Assembly (NCBI GenBank): GCA_964567845.1
Contig: CAZMOG010000001.1
Coordinates: forward strand, 34,540 to 98,539
Direction of reading: 5' to 3'
From: an uncultured Odoribacter sp.
GTDB lineage: Bacteria > Bacteroidota > Bacteroidia > Bacteroidales > Marinifilaceae
Length of the DNA stretch: 64,000 nt
Shown piece by piece: positions 47,209-52,983 of this stretch (position 1 is the stretch's first letter; every line of letters starts with the position of its first letter). The translations under genes were made by a program, and so were the position numbers. The notes beneath the pieces were generated by a model. The model had not been told where the DNA came from, did no database searches, and was given only the letters and a program-made list of their open reading frames with translations.

Positions 47209-48303
47209 TTACTCGCTCATTAACTGAGTCTGACGATCGATTGATGCCTGGTGAATGGCCTTAAATACCTTGTCTACAAAGTCAAGATCAAGATTATTAT
47301 CGCCTGCCTGTTTGTGAACCTTCGCAAGAATATCATCCCAACGACCAGACTGCAATACAGTAATATTGTTCTGTTTTTTGTAGTTTCCTATCTTCTCGGC
47401 AACTCTCATTCTGCGGCCCAACAACTGAATCAAATCGGTATCAAGATCATCAATATAACTTCTTAACTCATCAAGATTCTCATTGAATTGACTGTTATCG
47501 GTTTTGGTTGCTCGAATAATCAACTTATCGAGCATTGCCTTCATTTCGCAAGGAACGTACTGTTGCTTTGAATCACTCAATGCCACATCGGGATTATTGT
47601 GTGATTCCACCATCAAACCATCAAAACCCAAATCCATGGCCTTTTGCGCCAACTCAGGTATCAACTCGCGCTTTCCTGCCATGTGGCTTGGATCTACAAT
47701 AATCATCATTTCAGGAAAACGGCGACGCAACTCTACCGGTAACTCCCACTGTGGCTGGTTTCTGTATTTTGATTTGCCGTATGTTGAGAAACCACGGTGA
47801 ATAACACCCAATTTCTTTATGCCGGCAAGATTTAAGCGCTCCAAAGCTCCAATCCACAAATCAACATCGGGGTTTACAGGATTCTTTACCAATACAGGTA
47901 TATCAACACCCTTAAGCGCATCAGCCAACTCCTGCATGGCAAATGGGTTTGCCGAAGTTCTTGCTCCAATCCACAACATATCCATTCCTGCCTTTAGAGC
48001 CTCGTAAACATGTTTTGTGTTTGCCACCTCGGTGGTTATCTTCATTCCCAACTCTTTCTGGATTCTGCGCATCCAAGGCAGCCCCTCGGAACCTATTCCC
48101 TCGAAACATCCGGGGCGTGTGCGAGGTTTCCATATTCCTGCTCTGAAGATATTCACTCCCTGTGCCTTTAGTTGCTTAGCAGTGTCAAGCATCTGCTCCT
48201 CGCTTTCGGCACTACATGGTCCTGCAATTATTGCCGGTACCTGCTGATTGTCAAAGATTCCCCACTCTGAAGCGGGAATTAAATCCAACTGAACATTTGC
48301 CAT
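47209..48303 (-). CDS. Bifunctional 3-deoxy-7-phosphoheptulonate (DAHP) synthase / chorismate mutase type II
   Basis: The N-terminal part is a KDO8PS-like DAHP synthase barrel (IIAGPCSAES, FRAGIWKPRTRPG, DPSH). The C-terminal roughly 90 aa are AroQ-like (LDELRSYIDDLDTDLIQLLGRRMRVAEKIGNYK). Confidence 0.88.
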   Translation of the reverse strand: MANVQLDLIPASEWGIFDNQQVPAIIAGPCSAESEEQMLDTAKQLKAQGVNIFRAGIWKPRTRPGCFEGIGSEGLPWMRRIQKELGMKITTEVANTKHVYEALKAGMDMLWIGARTSANPFAMQELADALKGVDIPVLVKNPVNPDVDLWIGALERLNLAGIKKLGVIHRGFSTYGKSKYRNQPQWELPVELRRRFPEMMIIVDPSHMAGKRELIPELAQKAMDLGFDGLMVESHNNPDVALSDSKQQYVPCEMKAMLDKLIIRATKTDNSQFNENLDELRSYIDDLDTDLIQLLGRRMRVAEKIGNYKKQNNITVLQSGRWDDILAKVHKQAGDNNLDLDFVDKVFKAIHQASIDRQTQLMSE

Positions 48304-48327
48304 AATCTCTATATTTTATATTCCTAA

Positions 48328-49170
48328 TTATCTTATAATTCTCTTAATCCTGTTCGCCCCCTGAATAAGTTCCTTAATTGCTGCCTCGTCCATCTCGTCG
48401 ATTGCCTTACGGAAAGCTCCTATCTTCTCTATATAGGTATCAAGAACTGCCAGAACATTGTCGCGATTCTGCATAAAAATCGGAACCCACATCTCCGGGC
48501 TACTCTTAGCCAGACGGGCTGTCGATGCAAAACCTCCTGCTGCCAAATCAAATATGTGACGATCATTCTTCTCACGCTCCAATACTGTCAACGCCAAAGC
48601 GTATGAAATTACATGTGAGACGTGCGACACGTATGCGGTATGAACATCGTGCTGAGCCGACGAAAGATGTATCAAACGCATATTCAGTGCATCATACATT
48701 TTTTGAATAGTAGCCAATGCTCGCATATCGCTCTCCTCGGCATCGCAGATAATACCGGCGCGTCCATCAAACAATCCGCTCATTGCCGCTCTTGGGCCTG
48801 AATACTCGGTTCCCGACATTGGGTGTCCAAGCACAAATTGTCCGCGTTTAGGGTGATATTTAACCACATTTGCTATCAACCCCTTTGTTGAGCAGACATC
48901 GGTTACAATCTGCTTCTCCGATACCTTATCCAATATTTGTGGAATAAGTTTCACCGCTCCGCTTACAGGTATTGCAACAATAATTATATCACTCCCGGCA
49001 ATACACTCGTCAAGAGTTGCCACCTCATCAATGATTCCCAAATCTTTGGCAACCTGGACATTCAATGGGTTCTGCTCAACACCTAATATCTTCTCGGCAA
49101 AACCATTCTTCTTTAAATCTATTGCTATCGAGCCACCTATAAGACCCGTTCCTATTACTCCTACTACCAT
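48328..49170 (-). CDS. tyrA: Prephenate dehydrogenase
   Basis: Has a Rossmann N-terminus (VVGVIGTGLIGGSIA), GHPMSGTE, and HDVHTAYVSHVSH. Confidence 0.88.
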   Translation of the reverse strand: MVVGVIGTGLIGGSIAIDLKKNGFAEKILGVEQNPLNVQVAKDLGIIDEVATLDECIAGSDIIIVAIPVSGAVKLIPQILDKVSEKQIVTDVCSTKGLIANVVKYHPKRGQFVLGHPMSGTEYSGPRAAMSGLFDGRAGIICDAEESDMRALATIQKMYDALNMRLIHLSSAQHDVHTAYVSHVSHVISYALALTVLEREKNDRHIFDLAAGGFASTARLAKSSPEMWVPIFMQNRDNVLAVLDTYIEKIGAFRKAIDEMDEAAIKELIQGANRIKRIIR

Positions 49171-49175
49171 GCCTC

Positions 49176-49997
49176 TTATCCAAAACTTTTATACTCTCCA
49201 AGAACCTCTATGTCTGCAACCAATGGTCTTACCGCATCGACAGCTTTCCTATAGCGATCAAAATCGTTGAACTTCAAATCCACATAGAAGAAGTATTGCC
49301 ACTCCTTTCCGACAATCGGTAATGATTGTATTTTGGTCAAGTTTAACTCATAGAACGAGAAAATTGACAATATGTGTGACAAACTTCCCTGCTGGTGCGG
49401 CAAGGTAAAGCACAACGATGCCTTATTTATTTCGTACGAGGGCACAGATAATCTGTCATCCATGATAAGGAAACGGGTGAAGTTCTGTTTATGCGTCTCT
49501 ATGCTTGGCGCTAACACCTCCAAACCGAAAAGTTCTGCCGCCAAGGTCGATGCTATTGCTCCTACCGTTCTGTCACCACGAGCAGCCACCTCGCGTGCAG
49601 CAGATGCTGTATCCGATGCCTCGACCAAGCGAATATGCGGATACTCCTTAAAGAACTCACGACATTGGGCAATTGCCATATAGTGTGAATGTACCTCTTT
49701 CAACTCCTCGATTTTTACACCCGGCATTACAAGTAGATTCTGACGTATGGGCAGAAAAACCTCGCCCTTAATTGCTTTACCATATTTGTGAAGTAGGGCA
49801 TAATTTGGCAATAATGCGCCAGCCACTGTATTCTCGATAGCCATTATTAAACCATCGGCTTCTCCTTTATTTACCTGTTCAAATTCATCTTCAAAGTTGG
49901 CACAAGGCAAAATTTCTACCTCTTTTCCATAAAAAATTCGTGCTGCCTCTTCGTGAAAACAACCCTGAATACCCTGAATTGCAATTTTACTGTTCAT
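49176..49997 (-). CDS. pheA: Prephenate dehydratase
   Basis: Has a PDT domain (IAIQGIQGCFHEEAA, ENTVAGAL) and a C-terminal ACT domain (SLCFTLPHQQGSLSHIL, ESRP-like LTKIQSLP). Confidence 0.9.
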   Translation of the reverse strand: MNSKIAIQGIQGCFHEEAARIFYGKEVEILPCANFEDEFEQVNKGEADGLIMAIENTVAGALLPNYALLHKYGKAIKGEVFLPIRQNLLVMPGVKIEELKEVHSHYMAIAQCREFFKEYPHIRLVEASDTASAAREVAARGDRTVGAIASTLAAELFGLEVLAPSIETHKQNFTRFLIMDDRLSVPSYEINKASLCFTLPHQQGSLSHILSIFSFYELNLTKIQSLPIVGKEWQYFFYVDLKFNDFDRYRKAVDAVRPLVADIEVLGEYKSFG

Positions 49998-50008
49998 AAC
50001 TCTTAATT

Positions 50009-50034
50009 AAAAAAGCCCCGAGTTTTCGGGGCTT
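50009..50034 (-). terminator. Intrinsic terminator immediately upstream of pheA (attenuator terminator)
   Basis: On the minus strand, AAGCCCCGA-AAAC-UCGGGGCUU forms a 9-bp GC-rich stem followed by UUUU. It ends 12 nt before the pheA ATG. Confidence 0.7.
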
Positions 50035-50087
50035 CAATATGATTAACTTTTAAATTTCTATCCTATATTTACATATCACGACCCCAT

Positions 50088-50153
50088 TTACTCTTTTCTG
50101 CTAAAAAAGTAAAAGTAAAAATAACCGTAGCTATTAAATCGTGTTGTCTTCAT
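50088..50153 (-). CDS. Phe/Tyr-rich leader peptide (21 aa) of the aromatic amino-acid operon
   Basis: Encodes MKTTRFNSYGYFYFYFFSRKE*, with 5 Phe and 4 Tyr, 7 of them within the 8-residue stretch YFYFYFFS. It lies between a -7 box and the terminator. Confidence 0.6.
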   Translation of the reverse strand: MKTTRFNSYGYFYFYFFSRKE

Positions 50154-50172
50154 AATTTGTGATATTTTCGCT

Positions 50173-50180
50173 ACAAATAT
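50173..50180 (-). promoter_or_regulatory. -7 promoter box TATATTTG for the leader/pheA transcript
   Basis: Reverse complement of caaatata, 20 nt upstream of the leader ATG at 50153. Confidence 0.5.
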
Positions 50181-50292
50181 ATATGCTATTTTGATTCGTT
50201 GTTCACCATACCCCAATTTTTTTTGATATTTTTTCATAGCTACTTTTTTTATACCTTTACGTTTTGAATTTTTTAAAGCACAATACGGAGAT

Positions 50293-52983
50293 ATGGAGAG
50301 TAAAAATCTATTCCTGGTCGATGCCTTTGCCATGATTTATAGAGCCTATTATGCCTTTATAAATAATCCAAGAATCACAACCACCGGAATAAACACATCG
50401 GCAACATTTGGATTTTGCACCTTTATAACAGAATTATTAGAGGAGCAGAAACCTACACATATTGCTGTTGTCTTTGATCCGGAGGGGCCTACTTTCCGCC
50501 ACGAGATGTATTCCCCTTATAAGGCACAACGCCCCCCCATGCCCGAAGACATCCGCAGTGCTATTCCCTACATTAAACAAATCATACAGAACTTGGGCAT
50601 TAAGCATATCTCTGTTCCAGGTTACGAAGCCGATGATGTAATCGGTACTCTTGCAAAAAGGGCCGAGAACGAGGGATTCCATGTATATATGATTACCCCG
50701 GATAAAGATTATGCACAGCTTGTCACTCCCAATATTACAATGTATAAACCGAGTCGGTCAGGTAATTTATCAGAGACTTGGGATATTCCCGAGGTCCTTG
50801 ATAAATTCGGTATCGAGCGTATTGATCAGGTCATAGATATTCTTGGATTGATGGGCGATACCGCAGACAACGTTCCGGGATGCTCGGGTGTAGGCCCCAA
50901 AACAGCAGCCTCGCTTGTATATAAATATGGAGATATTGAGGGAATATATGAACATATCGATGAACTGAAAGGAAAGCAGAAAGAACGCCTTTTGGAGTGT
51001 CGCGATACTGTAATGCTATCAAAAAAGTTGGTTACAATCTGTACCCAGGTTCCAACAGATATTGCAATTGAAAATCTTAGAAGAGAGAGTGTCGAGGTAA
51101 ACGAATTGAAAGAGGTTCTGCAGAAACTTGAAATTTTTTCATTGGTAAACAGATTGGTTAACTCGGGCAAACGACTTGAAGATGCCGATGATCTGCAACA
51201 CGAAGAGGATTTGCATCTAACAATTAATAACTGTTCAAATATTGCAGAGGTAATTGAAAGAGTTTCCACTCAGAATAGCTTTGCACTGACATTCATCGAA
51301 CCTGATAATTTTAATCTTTATAGTGATTGGCCCAAGGGTGTCATAATTTCAGCACAAGACAACAGTGTAGAGGTTATCAAATTGTGTTGCTCCCCTCAAC
51401 AAGAGTTACTTGCTTTAAAACCTCTGTTCGAGAACAGCGAAAAGTGCTGGATTACCGACAAAACAAAACACAATTTGATAATTCTAAAGCGTTTGGGCAT
51501 CGACATAAAGTGTAAGATTTTCGATATAACCATTGCTCACTATATTCTGCAACCGGAACTAAGCCACTCGTTACAAAGAATGGCATTAGAACTTTTGCAT
51601 TACCAATTTACCGAGAAGCAAACCACAATCCAGCCTACACAACTATCACTTTTTGATGAAGTTATTGAGGAGGATTTCTCGCGTCCGGCAACTGAGTGTA
51701 ACCTTATATTCCGCCTAAAGCCTATTCTGCAACGCAAGCTCGAAGAGAGCAACTTTACAAACCTGTTCTACAATGTAGAGATGCCGCTCTGTTTTGTACT
51801 TGCAGATATGGAGTTCGAGGGTGTTGCCGTTGATATTAATGCACTGCATACACTTGCCACGGAATTTAAAGAGAAGTGCAACTCCCTTGAAAAACAGATA
51901 TATGCCGAGGCCGGCCACGAATTCAATATCAACTCTCCCAAACAGTTGGGCGATGTTCTTTTTGGCGAATTACAACTTGATCCACAACAGAAAAAGACCA
52001 AAACCGGACAATTTGTTACCTCGGAACAGGTCCTTTCAAAGTTGGAGGAGGCAAACTCTATTGTAAAACATATATTAGAGTATCGCGGAATTAAGAAGTT
52101 GTTATCAACCTATGCCGACGCTCTTCCTGAATACATAAACAAAGCCGATGGCAAGATTCATACAAACTTTAATCAGACCGAAACGGCTACAGGGCGTTTA
52201 AGCAGTTTGAATCCTAACCTGCAGAACATACCGATAAGAACCGAGGAGGGCCGAAAAATAAGAAAAGCCTTTATTCCCGGCAATTCGGATTACAGCTTCT
52301 TTTCGGCCGATTATTCGCAGGTAGAGTTAAGACTTATGGCCTCGCTCAGTAAGGATCCTGAAATGATTGCAGCATTCAAAAATGGCGAAGATATACATTC
52401 GGCCACTGCATCTAAAATATATAAAACCCCTATTGATCAGGTAACATCGGAGATGCGCCGGCGTGCAAAGACCGCCAATTTCGGAATTATTTATGGAATT
52501 TCGGCATGGGGATTGGCAGAGCGTCTTAATATTAGTCGCAAAGAGGGTAAGGAGCTGATTGACGGATATTTTGAAATGTATCCCGAGGTAAAAAAATATA
52601 TGGAAAACTCAATCGACCATGCAAGAAAGAAACGCTACGTAGAGACTATTCTTGGCCGTCGTCGATACCTGAACGATATTAACTCGCACAATGCAGTTGT
52701 ACGCGGTGTGGCAGAGAGGAATGCCGTAAACGCTCCAATTCAAGGTTCCGCAGCCGACATAATCAAAATGGCCATGATCTGTATATGGCGTGAACTTAAC
52801 GAGCGAGGATTGAAATCAAAAATGATTATTCAGGTTCATGACGAGTTGAACTTCAAGTGTCATAATAGCGAAAAGGAGCTTCTTAAAGAGATTGTAGTTA
52901 GTTGCATGGAGAAGATTGTCAATTTAAGTGTTCCCCTCACTGTAAGTTGTGGATTCGGCAAGAATTGGTATGAAGCACATTAA
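50293..52983 (+). CDS. polA: DNA polymerase I
   Basis: Has a 5' nuclease domain (LVDAFAMIYRAYYA, GYEADDVIGTLA), a central exonuclease-like domain, and pol motifs A (DYSQVELRLMA), B (RRRAKTANFGIIYG) and C (QVHDEL). Confidence 0.95.
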   Translation: MESKNLFLVDAFAMIYRAYYAFINNPRITTTGINTSATFGFCTFITELLEEQKPTHIAVVFDPEGPTFRHEMYSPYKAQRPPMPEDIRSAIPYIKQIIQNLGIKHISVPGYEADDVIGTLAKRAENEGFHVYMITPDKDYAQLVTPNITMYKPSRSGNLSETWDIPEVLDKFGIERIDQVIDILGLMGDTADNVPGCSGVGPKTAASLVYKYGDIEGIYEHIDELKGKQKERLLECRDTVMLSKKLVTICTQVPTDIAIENLRRESVEVNELKEVLQKLEIFSLVNRLVNSGKRLEDADDLQHEEDLHLTINNCSNIAEVIERVSTQNSFALTFIEPDNFNLYSDWPKGVIISAQDNSVEVIKLCCSPQQELLALKPLFENSEKCWITDKTKHNLIILKRLGIDIKCKIFDITIAHYILQPELSHSLQRMALELLHYQFTEKQTTIQPTQLSLFDEVIEEDFSRPATECNLIFRLKPILQRKLEESNFTNLFYNVEMPLCFVLADMEFEGVAVDINALHTLATEFKEKCNSLEKQIYAEAGHEFNINSPKQLGDVLFGELQLDPQQKKTKTGQFVTSEQVLSKLEEANSIVKHILEYRGIKKLLSTYADALPEYINKADGKIHTNFNQTETATGRLSSLNPNLQNIPIRTEEGRKIRKAFIPGNSDYSFFSADYSQVELRLMASLSKDPEMIAAFKNGEDIHSATASKIYKTPIDQVTSEMRRRAKTANFGIIYGISAWGLAERLNISRKEGKELIDGYFEMYPEVKKYMENSIDHARKKRYVETILGRRRYLNDINSHNAVVRGVAERNAVNAPIQGSAADIIKMAMICIWRELNERGLKSKMIIQVHDELNFKCHNSEKELLKEIVVSCMEKIVNLSVPLTVSCGFGKNWYEAH

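Follow-up and report, generated by a model that had tools for sequence, protein, structure and literature searches.

The 295-bp gap between polA and pheA in the window, the 64,000-nucleotide stretch of DNA that was analysed, holds on its minus strand all the leader elements of what is most probably (at roughly 85%) a classical ribosome-mediated, or leader-peptide, transcription attenuator controlling the pheA-tyrA-DAHPS/CM operon. Read in that direction, a -7 box is followed by a leader ORF, a G-rich segment, an A/U-rich spacer, a terminator and the pheA ATG (Table 1); an unannotated 66-nt ORF and its hairpins account for the gap. An earlier note on this DNA had proposed a pheL-like ribosome-mediated attenuator here, and the anatomy, folds, conservation and covariation described below agree with it; all of its elements are present, in the order it gave and at coordinates right to within one base. 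Our reading is built on the sequence elements, their alternative folds, conservation and covariation, from which we infer a transcription start, translation of the leader, ribosome stalling and a regulatory outcome.

Table 1. Features of the polA-pheA region and the operon downstream (positions in the window)
Feature	Positions	Strand	Sequence or domain match	Remark
polA	50293..52983	+		Divergent from pheA
-7 promoter box, Bacteroidota type	50174..50181	-	TATATTTG; consensus TAnnTTTG	20 nt upstream of leader ATG
Leader ORF	50088..50153	-	MKTTRFNSYGYFYFYFFSRKE	21 codons and TAA (50090..50088)
Segment 1	50136..50143	-	CACGAUUU	Codons 4-6, with conserved CGA-UUU hexamer; predicted partner in the untranslated leader: GGGGUCGUG of segment 2
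Regulatory run	50103..50129	-	Y G Y F Y F Y F F (TAC GGT TAT TTT TAC TTT TAC TTT TTT)	Codons 9-17; proposed ribosome stalling zone
Segment 2, antiterminator 5' strand	50072..50085	-	GGGGUCGUGAUAUG	Begins 2 nt past leader stop
Segment 3, antiterminator 3' strand	50028..50041	-	CAUAUUGAAGCCCC	Overlaps terminator 5' arm
Intrinsic terminator	50009..50035	-	GAAGCCCCGA-AAAC-UCGGGGCUUU and T-run to 50009	G+C-rich stem
pheA, prephenate dehydratase	49997..49176	-	Pfam PF00800
tyrA, prephenate dehydrogenase	49170..48328	-	Pfam PF02153/PF20463
DAHP synthase/chorismate mutase fusion (DAHPS/CM)	48303..47209	-	Pfam PF00793+PF01817
Regulated operon pheA-tyrA-DAHPS/CM	47209..49997	-	Pfam matches

Pfam matches confirmed the identities that had been given to the downstream genes (pheA, tyrA and DAHP synthase/chorismate mutase). 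An 81-aa ORF at 50088..50333 was rejected as a gene, being the leader frame prolonged upstream into the polA start region. The DAHPS/CM of the operon is the sole DAHP synthase detected in the genome of the window; a second PF00793 match there belongs to a 280-aa stand-alone protein, presumably KdsA. In this gut or rumen-type Bacteroidales member, the element thus points to probable control of the genome's only DAHP synthase and hence of entry into the shikimate pathway. No TrpA gene was found in the genome (assembly 85.8% complete), nor was there a Bacteroid-trp leader (RF01692) in positions 49000..51000 (E up to 10) or in the whole genome, with a Bacteroides thetaiotaomicron control positive. 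It may be, then, that the pathway in this organism yields no amino acids other than Phe and Tyr as end products, a possibility that a leader lacking Trp codons would fit.

The -7 box is where the earlier note had seen it, save that the coordinates given there (50173..50180) are off by one base (50181..50174). There is no clear -33 TTTG element upstream of it. Transcription probably begins a few bases past the box. Of 75 related loci, 57 have a TAnnTTTG motif no more than 60 nt ahead of the first leader ATG, compared with 5% of shuffles, and the distance from box to ATG has a median of 21 nt.

Phe or Tyr occupies 9 of the 21 leader codons (5 F and 4 Y, as counted previously), and 8 of the 9 codons that make up the regulatory run. 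The codons of the run vary in close relatives as T-[A/T]-[T/C], with changes that are synonymous or swaps between F and Y, as expected if codon identity is under selection. To place the leader in its genome, we scanned both strands of the assembly (2.06 Mb, 131 contigs) for ATG-started ORFs of 8-45 codons. Out of 35,456 such mini-ORFs, this leader is the only one that has at least 6 aromatics per 8 residues together with a strong terminator downstream, and the scan yielded no other convincing attenuator. An Ile/Leu-rich ORF on contig C121 was considered and set aside, as it overlaps the end of another gene and resembles a small membrane protein. Across relatives, purines make up 73% of the 12 nt that follow the aromatic run, where most codons are for Lys, Ser or Arg, and these 12 nt fold with the U-rich run into a local hairpin (mean z = -1.8), which could act as a pause hairpin. 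Near the N terminus, an R-F motif recurs in many leaders, with CGA as its codon in 22 of 25 cases; such conservation at the nucleotide level suggests that the constraint acts on RNA or decoding and not on the peptide.

The terminator stem, GAAGCCCCGA-AAAC-TCGGGGCTTT (50035..50012), comprises 10 pairs, 6 of them G-C, with a predicted energy of -16.8 kcal/mol, bearing out the strong hairpin and U-run that had been placed before pheA. The hairpin lies close upstream of the pheA ATG (49997), at 14 nt counted from the end of the stem and 11 nt counted from the T-run; the latter distance had earlier been counted as 12 nt. A consensus scan of 49800..50400 gave one terminator-like site, with 0.2 expected from shuffles, and the 186-nt leader RNA has a folding z of -3.45.

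The terminator has a competitor. The motif UGGGGU, said by the earlier note to lie after the leader stop at about 50081..50086, is indeed there (50086..50081, minus strand). The note's proposed antiterminator pairing also stands, although its extent was put too low at 6 bp: the helix has 12 bp, GGGGU:GCCCC and UGAUAUG:CAUAUUG, in blocks of 5 and 7 bp on either side of a 2x2 internal loop, with an energy of -11.7 kcal/mol. This antiterminator is the minimum-free-energy fold of the RNA that runs from the last Phe codon to the terminator loop, in which the 3' arm is absent. Because the helix consumes the terminator 5' arm, the two structures are mutually exclusive. With 14 nt masked from the stop codon onwards, to mimic a terminating ribosome, only the terminator folds. 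The full-length leader, left untranslated, folds with CACGAUUU paired to GGGGUCGUG and the terminator formed; this pairing of segment 1 is an 8-bp duplex (-9.1 kcal/mol) that is present in minimum-free-energy folds. With pairings 1:2, 2:3 and 3:4 all found, the four segments of the textbook model are present. On these modelled energies the terminator (-16.8 kcal/mol) is the more stable of the two and the antiterminator (-11.7 kcal/mol) the less, and switching would therefore have to be kinetic. Kinetic switching is usual for attenuators.

From this anatomy we propose the following mechanism. The 21-codon leader would be translated at once after transcription starts. With charged tRNA-Phe and tRNA-Tyr plentiful, the ribosome would reach the UAA at 50090..50088 and its footprint would lie over segment 2; segment 3 would then be left to pair with segment 4, forming the terminator, and RNA polymerase would stop at the T-run, 11 nt before pheA. 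Were Phe or Tyr scarce, the ribosome would stall within Y-G-Y-F-Y-F-Y-F-F and segment 2, at least 17 nt downstream, would stay free to pair with segment 3 (5+7 bp), so that no terminator would form and the operon would be transcribed. The last Phe codon ends at 50103, 17 nt upstream of the start of segment 2 at 50085. In the absence of translation, segment 1 (CACGAUUU) could sequester segment 2, making termination the predicted default state. Segment 1 sits 5' of most of the aromatic run, and a ribosome stalled late in the run would consequently leave it uncovered. As the Phe and Tyr codons are interleaved, the device would respond to shortage of either end product of the operon, in the manner of an OR gate.

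Such an arrangement of F/Y mini-ORF and terminator before pheA, for which the earlier note had suggested a conservation check, is kept in Bacteroidales and beyond. We examined 41 genomes of the same genus, family or order, the window's own included; 23 have pheA, and upstream sequence was available for 22 of these. An F- or F/Y-rich mini-ORF and a terminator precede pheA in all 22, and 11 of them carry a tandem pair of leader units. A search of GTDB species representatives returned 80 named loci, 78 of them usable, and the device is found in about 68 of these 78 Bacteroidota loci (59 by heuristic and a further 9 or 10 by eye, the heuristic having overlooked loci with GTG starts or imperfect stems). 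The nearest pheA sequences, at about 60-64% amino-acid identity, come from Bacteroidales MAGs of goat, ruminant and chicken guts, Candidatus Cryptobacteroides among them. Loci with the device occur in Alistipes, Parabacteroides, Dysgonomonas, Prevotella, Phocaeicola and Muribaculaceae, and further ones in Paludibacter, Saccharicrinis, Lentimicrobium, Pedobacter and a Chitinophagales MAG; in those without it, pheA is mostly fused into an upstream operon. Taken across roughly 100 related loci, most share with the window an F/Y(/W) run, an antiterminator strand, a terminator and a TAnnTTTG box before pheA. The element is thus no oddity among Bacteroidota; it is the rule for pheA in that phylum, and has been published for Flavobacterium psychrophilum.

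Conservation at close range has the footprint expected of a switch. Two species of the same genus are 100% identical from leader codon 4 to the end of the antiterminator 5' strand and both retain the terminator stem, whereas the terminator loop and the spacer differ freely.

MAFFT alignments brought the terminator into register and left the antiterminator out of it; covariation was therefore assessed by a duplex permutation test that needs no register. For each of 86 non-redundant units, we computed the best pairing of the stretch lying between aromatic run and terminator with a terminator 5' arm, using the unit's own arm and then that of every other unit. Own pairings gave -12.6 kcal/mol and foreign ones -8.2 kcal/mol, and none of 20,000 permutations did as well (p<5e-5), a p-value that, like the others of this test, overstates the case, the units being related and not fully independent; shared ancestry lifts the foreign scores too, which counts against the test. 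Two controls were flat: with the terminator 3' arm as target, own and foreign pairings gave -5.8 and -5.9 kcal/mol (p = 0.62), and with the sequence upstream of the ORF as query they gave -5.1 and -5.0 kcal/mol (p = 0.29). Reducing the set to one unit per distinct arm core (57 clusters) left the outcome in place (own -12.7, foreign -8.1 kcal/mol, p < 1e-4), with about 36 of the 57 own pairings in the best 10% of their row. The paired sequences themselves vary by lineage, from GGGGU/GCCCC in the window to GAGCGGGA/UCCCGCU, ACAGGAUUCU/AGAGUCCUGU, UUGGGA/UCCCAA and ACCGGA/UCCGGU elsewhere. In these comparisons, the predicted antiterminator co-varies with the terminator 5' arm. The 1:2 pairing, of the leader coding region with segment 2, gave a similar picture over the 86 units (own -10.9, foreign -7.5 kcal/mol, p < 5e-5); in the window itself it is only moderately specific, with 24 of 85 foreign partners pairing as well.

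The antiterminator 5' strand starts a median of 12 nt past the last aromatic codon over the 86 units (interquartile range 10-14), and 17 nt past it in the window. About 12 nt is the downstream reach of a stalled ribosome, footprint sizes being well established. The geometry fits a ribosome footprint, such that a ribosome at the stop codon would mask segment 2 and one stalled in the run would leave it free.

That the leader is a mixed Phe/Tyr sensor, as the earlier note held, fits the comparative data, in which Tyr content follows operon content. In 69 loci with DAHPS-CM and/or prephenate dehydrogenase (either of two types) after pheA, the median leader ratio Y/(F+Y) is 0.40 and no leader has a value of 0. 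The ratio is 0-0.13 in 8 of the 9 loci that have no DAHPS-CM or tyrA genes downstream of pheA. Seven of these nine loci belong to the window's own family, with pheA monocistronic or followed only by unrelated genes. The association of Phe-only leaders with stand-alone pheA may represent just one or two evolutionary events. Among the leaders compared, Tyr codons accompany a co-transcribed tyrA or DAHPS-CM, and those of stand-alone pheA genes are almost pure Phe. The link between composition and operon supports an OR gate for Phe and Tyr. Five genomes with Phe-only pheA leaders were searched for DAHPS-CM paralogues elsewhere, and no aromatic or Tyr-specific leader was found upstream of these. 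The comparative data offer a clear natural case of an OR-gate attenuator for two amino acids, in which the choice of codons appears to go with the genes of the operon.

Several other explanations bear on the same sequences. The hairpin might act as a terminator that is constitutive or leaky, or mark where a small RNA has its 3' end, with the F/Y ORF as untranslated U-rich sequence that senses no amino acid. U-rich sequence does easily give Phe and Tyr codons in one frame, and the Rfam Phe_leader score lies under its threshold. The frame defined by the ATG, however, is always the aromatic one in about 90 loci, and substitutions in the run are synonymous or F/Y swaps; the antiterminator co-varies with the terminator and keeps a footprint-like distance from the run, and Tyr content tracks operon content. 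Since polA is divergent, the hairpin terminates no neighbouring gene. We consider this explanation quite unlikely. The same judgement, in slightly milder form, applies to a translated Phe/Tyr sensor whose output is control of pheA translation initiation, or polarity mediated by Rho or mRNA stability. The proximity of the hairpin to the pheA start codon (14 nt from the stem, 11 nt from the T-run; in relatives usually 11-40 nt from terminator end to ATG) would suit it, as would the general dependence of Bacteroidota start sites on unstructured upstream sequence. Against it stand a canonical G+C-rich stem with a T-run and a conserved alternative helix that competes specifically with the terminator 5' arm, and in F. 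psychrophilum a separate short 5' transcript and conditional read-through have been reported (PMC9723704). This output is unlikely.

The recurrence of the N-terminal R-F motif in many leaders could be taken to mean that the mini-ORF serves to make a small functional peptide rich in aromatic residues, rather than to sense amino acids. Yet length and sequence vary freely outside the aromatic run, R-F is conserved at the nucleotide level (CGA 22/25), and an antiterminator and a terminator invariably accompany the ORF before pheA, all of which makes a functional peptide highly improbable. Equally hard to credit is an operator acting in trans instead of the ribosome, be it a tRNA contact of the T-box type, an RNA-binding protein resembling TRAP or PyrR, or a metabolite-sensing riboswitch. 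With permissive settings (E up to 10, 49000..51000), Rfam gave no match to T-box or riboswitch models in the 5' region. What is conserved is codon identity, stop position and alternative hairpins, and no conserved aptamer-like domain lies between leader and terminator, where the spacer is free to change even within the genus. Ribosome-mediated attenuation remains our preferred reading.

On a wider view, we tentatively suggest, at somewhat less than an even chance, that the Bacteroidota pheA leader constitutes a phylum-wide RNA family, absent from Rfam, in which the sensor has been retuned along with the operon: Phe-only where pheA stands alone, interleaved Phe and Tyr (sometimes with Trp) where tyrA or DAHPS-CM accompanies it, and often in tandem, with the conserved CGA-UUU hexamer near the leader's beginning serving as a programmed slow-decoding site or as an anti-antiterminator strand. 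The element is in any case common enough in Bacteroidota to merit an Rfam family. Should the phylum-wide proposal hold, such ubiquity would imply tight coupling of transcription and translation in Bacteroidota, of which we know of no demonstration. Our literature search found no formal description of the element for Bacteroidales and no account of a link between leader composition and operon content. Vitreschak and colleagues are said to have predicted attenuators in Bacteroidetes/Chlorobi (2004, in FEMS Microbiol Lett). A B. thetaiotaomicron transcriptome paper treats leader-like sORFs in general terms only.

The closest known system is in F. psychrophilum, where a leader peptide attenuation element has been described in the 5' region (THC0290_N_0195) of the pheA-aspC3 mRNA (Guerin et al. 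2021, ISME Commun 1:33, PMC9723704, Table S7, SI D9). That study mapped its transcription start, reported a short 5' transcript and read-through that varied with conditions, and noted that it is conserved in Flavobacteriaceae and absent from Rfam (PMC9723704). The element comes from the same phylum, has pheA as the first gene and an intrinsic terminator just before it, and its leader, MNTNNTFYSNNSFYFYWNIGRDCYMVI, is mixed aromatic like that of the window. Checking the published sequence, we found a G-rich antiterminator strand about 10 nt past the run, forming 8 bp at -12.2 kcal/mol; in both elements, then, a G-rich strand after the run pairs with the terminator 5' arm. The window shares the full set of published Bacteroidota pheA leader features, namely a site upstream of pheA, an F/Y run, an antiterminator strand, a terminator and TAnnTTTG. 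The two differ in detail: the F. psychrophilum leader is of another length and has a Trp codon as well, its ORF stays open across the antiterminator whereas that of the window stops 2 nt before it, its operon is pheA-aminotransferase rather than pheA-tyrA-DAHPS/CM, and the primary sequences align over the U-rich run only.

The pheL-pheA system of E. coli and other Gammaproteobacteria (RF01859, PMC3082878) follows the same logic, with a run of leader codons, alternative hairpins and a terminator before the gene for prephenate dehydratase. The pheL leader uses Phe codons only, whereas Phe and Tyr are interleaved in the window, which moreover belongs to another phylum, has a Bacteroidota -7 promoter, has no Shine-Dalgarno-type start and serves an operon that is also for Tyr and DAHP. 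A search of Rfam for leader families gave a full-length match to Phe_leader (RF01859) at 50006..50140, scoring 35.4 bits (E 0.0012), below the gathering threshold of 55. Other Rfam matches (rimP, Arrc14, isrJ and others) were dismissed, as they match the terminator hairpin only. The window element works like pheL and is not a member of the Phe_leader family.

In its segments the window resembles the textbook trpL-trpE attenuator of E. coli, which has the same four (1:2, 2:3 and 3:4) and a stop codon at the edge of segment 2. There the terminating ribosome masks the antiterminator, as is proposed for the window, and the regulatory codons lie some 12-17 nt upstream of segment 2, as in the window. 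The amino acid sensed by trpL-trpE is a different one, and segment 1 of the window does not contain the regulatory run, being placed mostly 5' of it. Within Bacteroidetes, Bacteroid-trp (RF01692; Weinberg et al. 2010, PMC2864571) is likewise a leader-type cis-regulatory RNA of an amino-acid biosynthesis operon, preceding trp genes where the window element precedes pheA. The mechanism proposed here is of the textbook kind, its pheA case has already been published for F. psychrophilum, and no concept is changed by it.

An early Arg-Phe pair, occupying leader codons 5-6 in the window, recurs in many leaders of related pheA loci (L004-L008, L055-L064, L099, L100 and L116, among others), and its codons are CGA-TTT in 22 of 25 cases; CGA encodes just 8 of the 92 remaining Arg residues in these same leaders. 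The constraint on this early CGA-TTT is exerted at the nucleotide or decoding level, where the hexamer may serve as an anti-antiterminator strand or as a slow codon. Downstream of the aromatic run lies a 12-nt segment that, across the window and 86 related leader-plus-terminator units, is 73% purine and consists mostly of Lys, Arg and Ser codons. Local pairing of this segment with the U-rich run gave a mean z of -1.8 in the 86 units, and the resulting hairpin may cause RNA polymerase to pause.

Features of the leader region and operon in the window
Feature	Position	Strand	Remark
CGATTT hexamer	50136..50141	-	Arg-Phe pair
12 nt 3' of aromatic run	50091..50102	-	equivalent positions compared in 86 related units
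Terminator stem end to pheA ATG	49998..50012		14 nt
Operon	47209..49997		no class I/II aminotransferase
81-aa ORF	50088..50333	-	artefact

The 81-aa ORF, taken from a mechanical ORF list, is no gene; it results from carrying the leader's frame upstream as far as an ATG overlapping the polA start. At the other end of the region, the terminator stem finishes only a short distance from the pheA ATG, a spacing that is usually 11-40 nt in relatives. A hairpin re-forming in read-through transcripts could affect pheA translation initiation as well.

Most relatives carry a class I/II aminotransferase between pheA and tyrA, a gene that is absent from the operon in the window's genus; the best aminotransferase matches elsewhere in the window's own genome (G000) are only about 26% identical. 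In this assembly, 85.8% complete, the operon's DAHP synthase/chorismate mutase fusion is the sole DAHP synthase detected, and neither TrpA (PF00290) nor the Bacteroid-trp leader RNA was found. In large-genome relatives from the window's family (L035-L041 and L088), pheA is monocistronic or followed solely by unrelated genes, and the leader or leaders are nearly pure Phe, as in MQTVFFHSFFFSFFFFGNEKDRILAV. The five genomes of this set that were searched each encode two paralogues of the fusion, located away from pheA, and no aromatic leader was found before them.

The window holds a single unit, versus two complete leader-plus-terminator units in tandem upstream of pheA in 11 of 22 relatives (L004, L005, L006, L014, L015, L017-L021 and L024). 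One such pair consists of MKSFWNAYYFYFYFFSKK and a terminator, followed by MAKYFRFSDGFYFDFYFYF... and a second terminator. In all 11, the two units share one promoter box and sit between that box and pheA, a serial pair of predicted attenuators in which the repression ratio would be multiplied.
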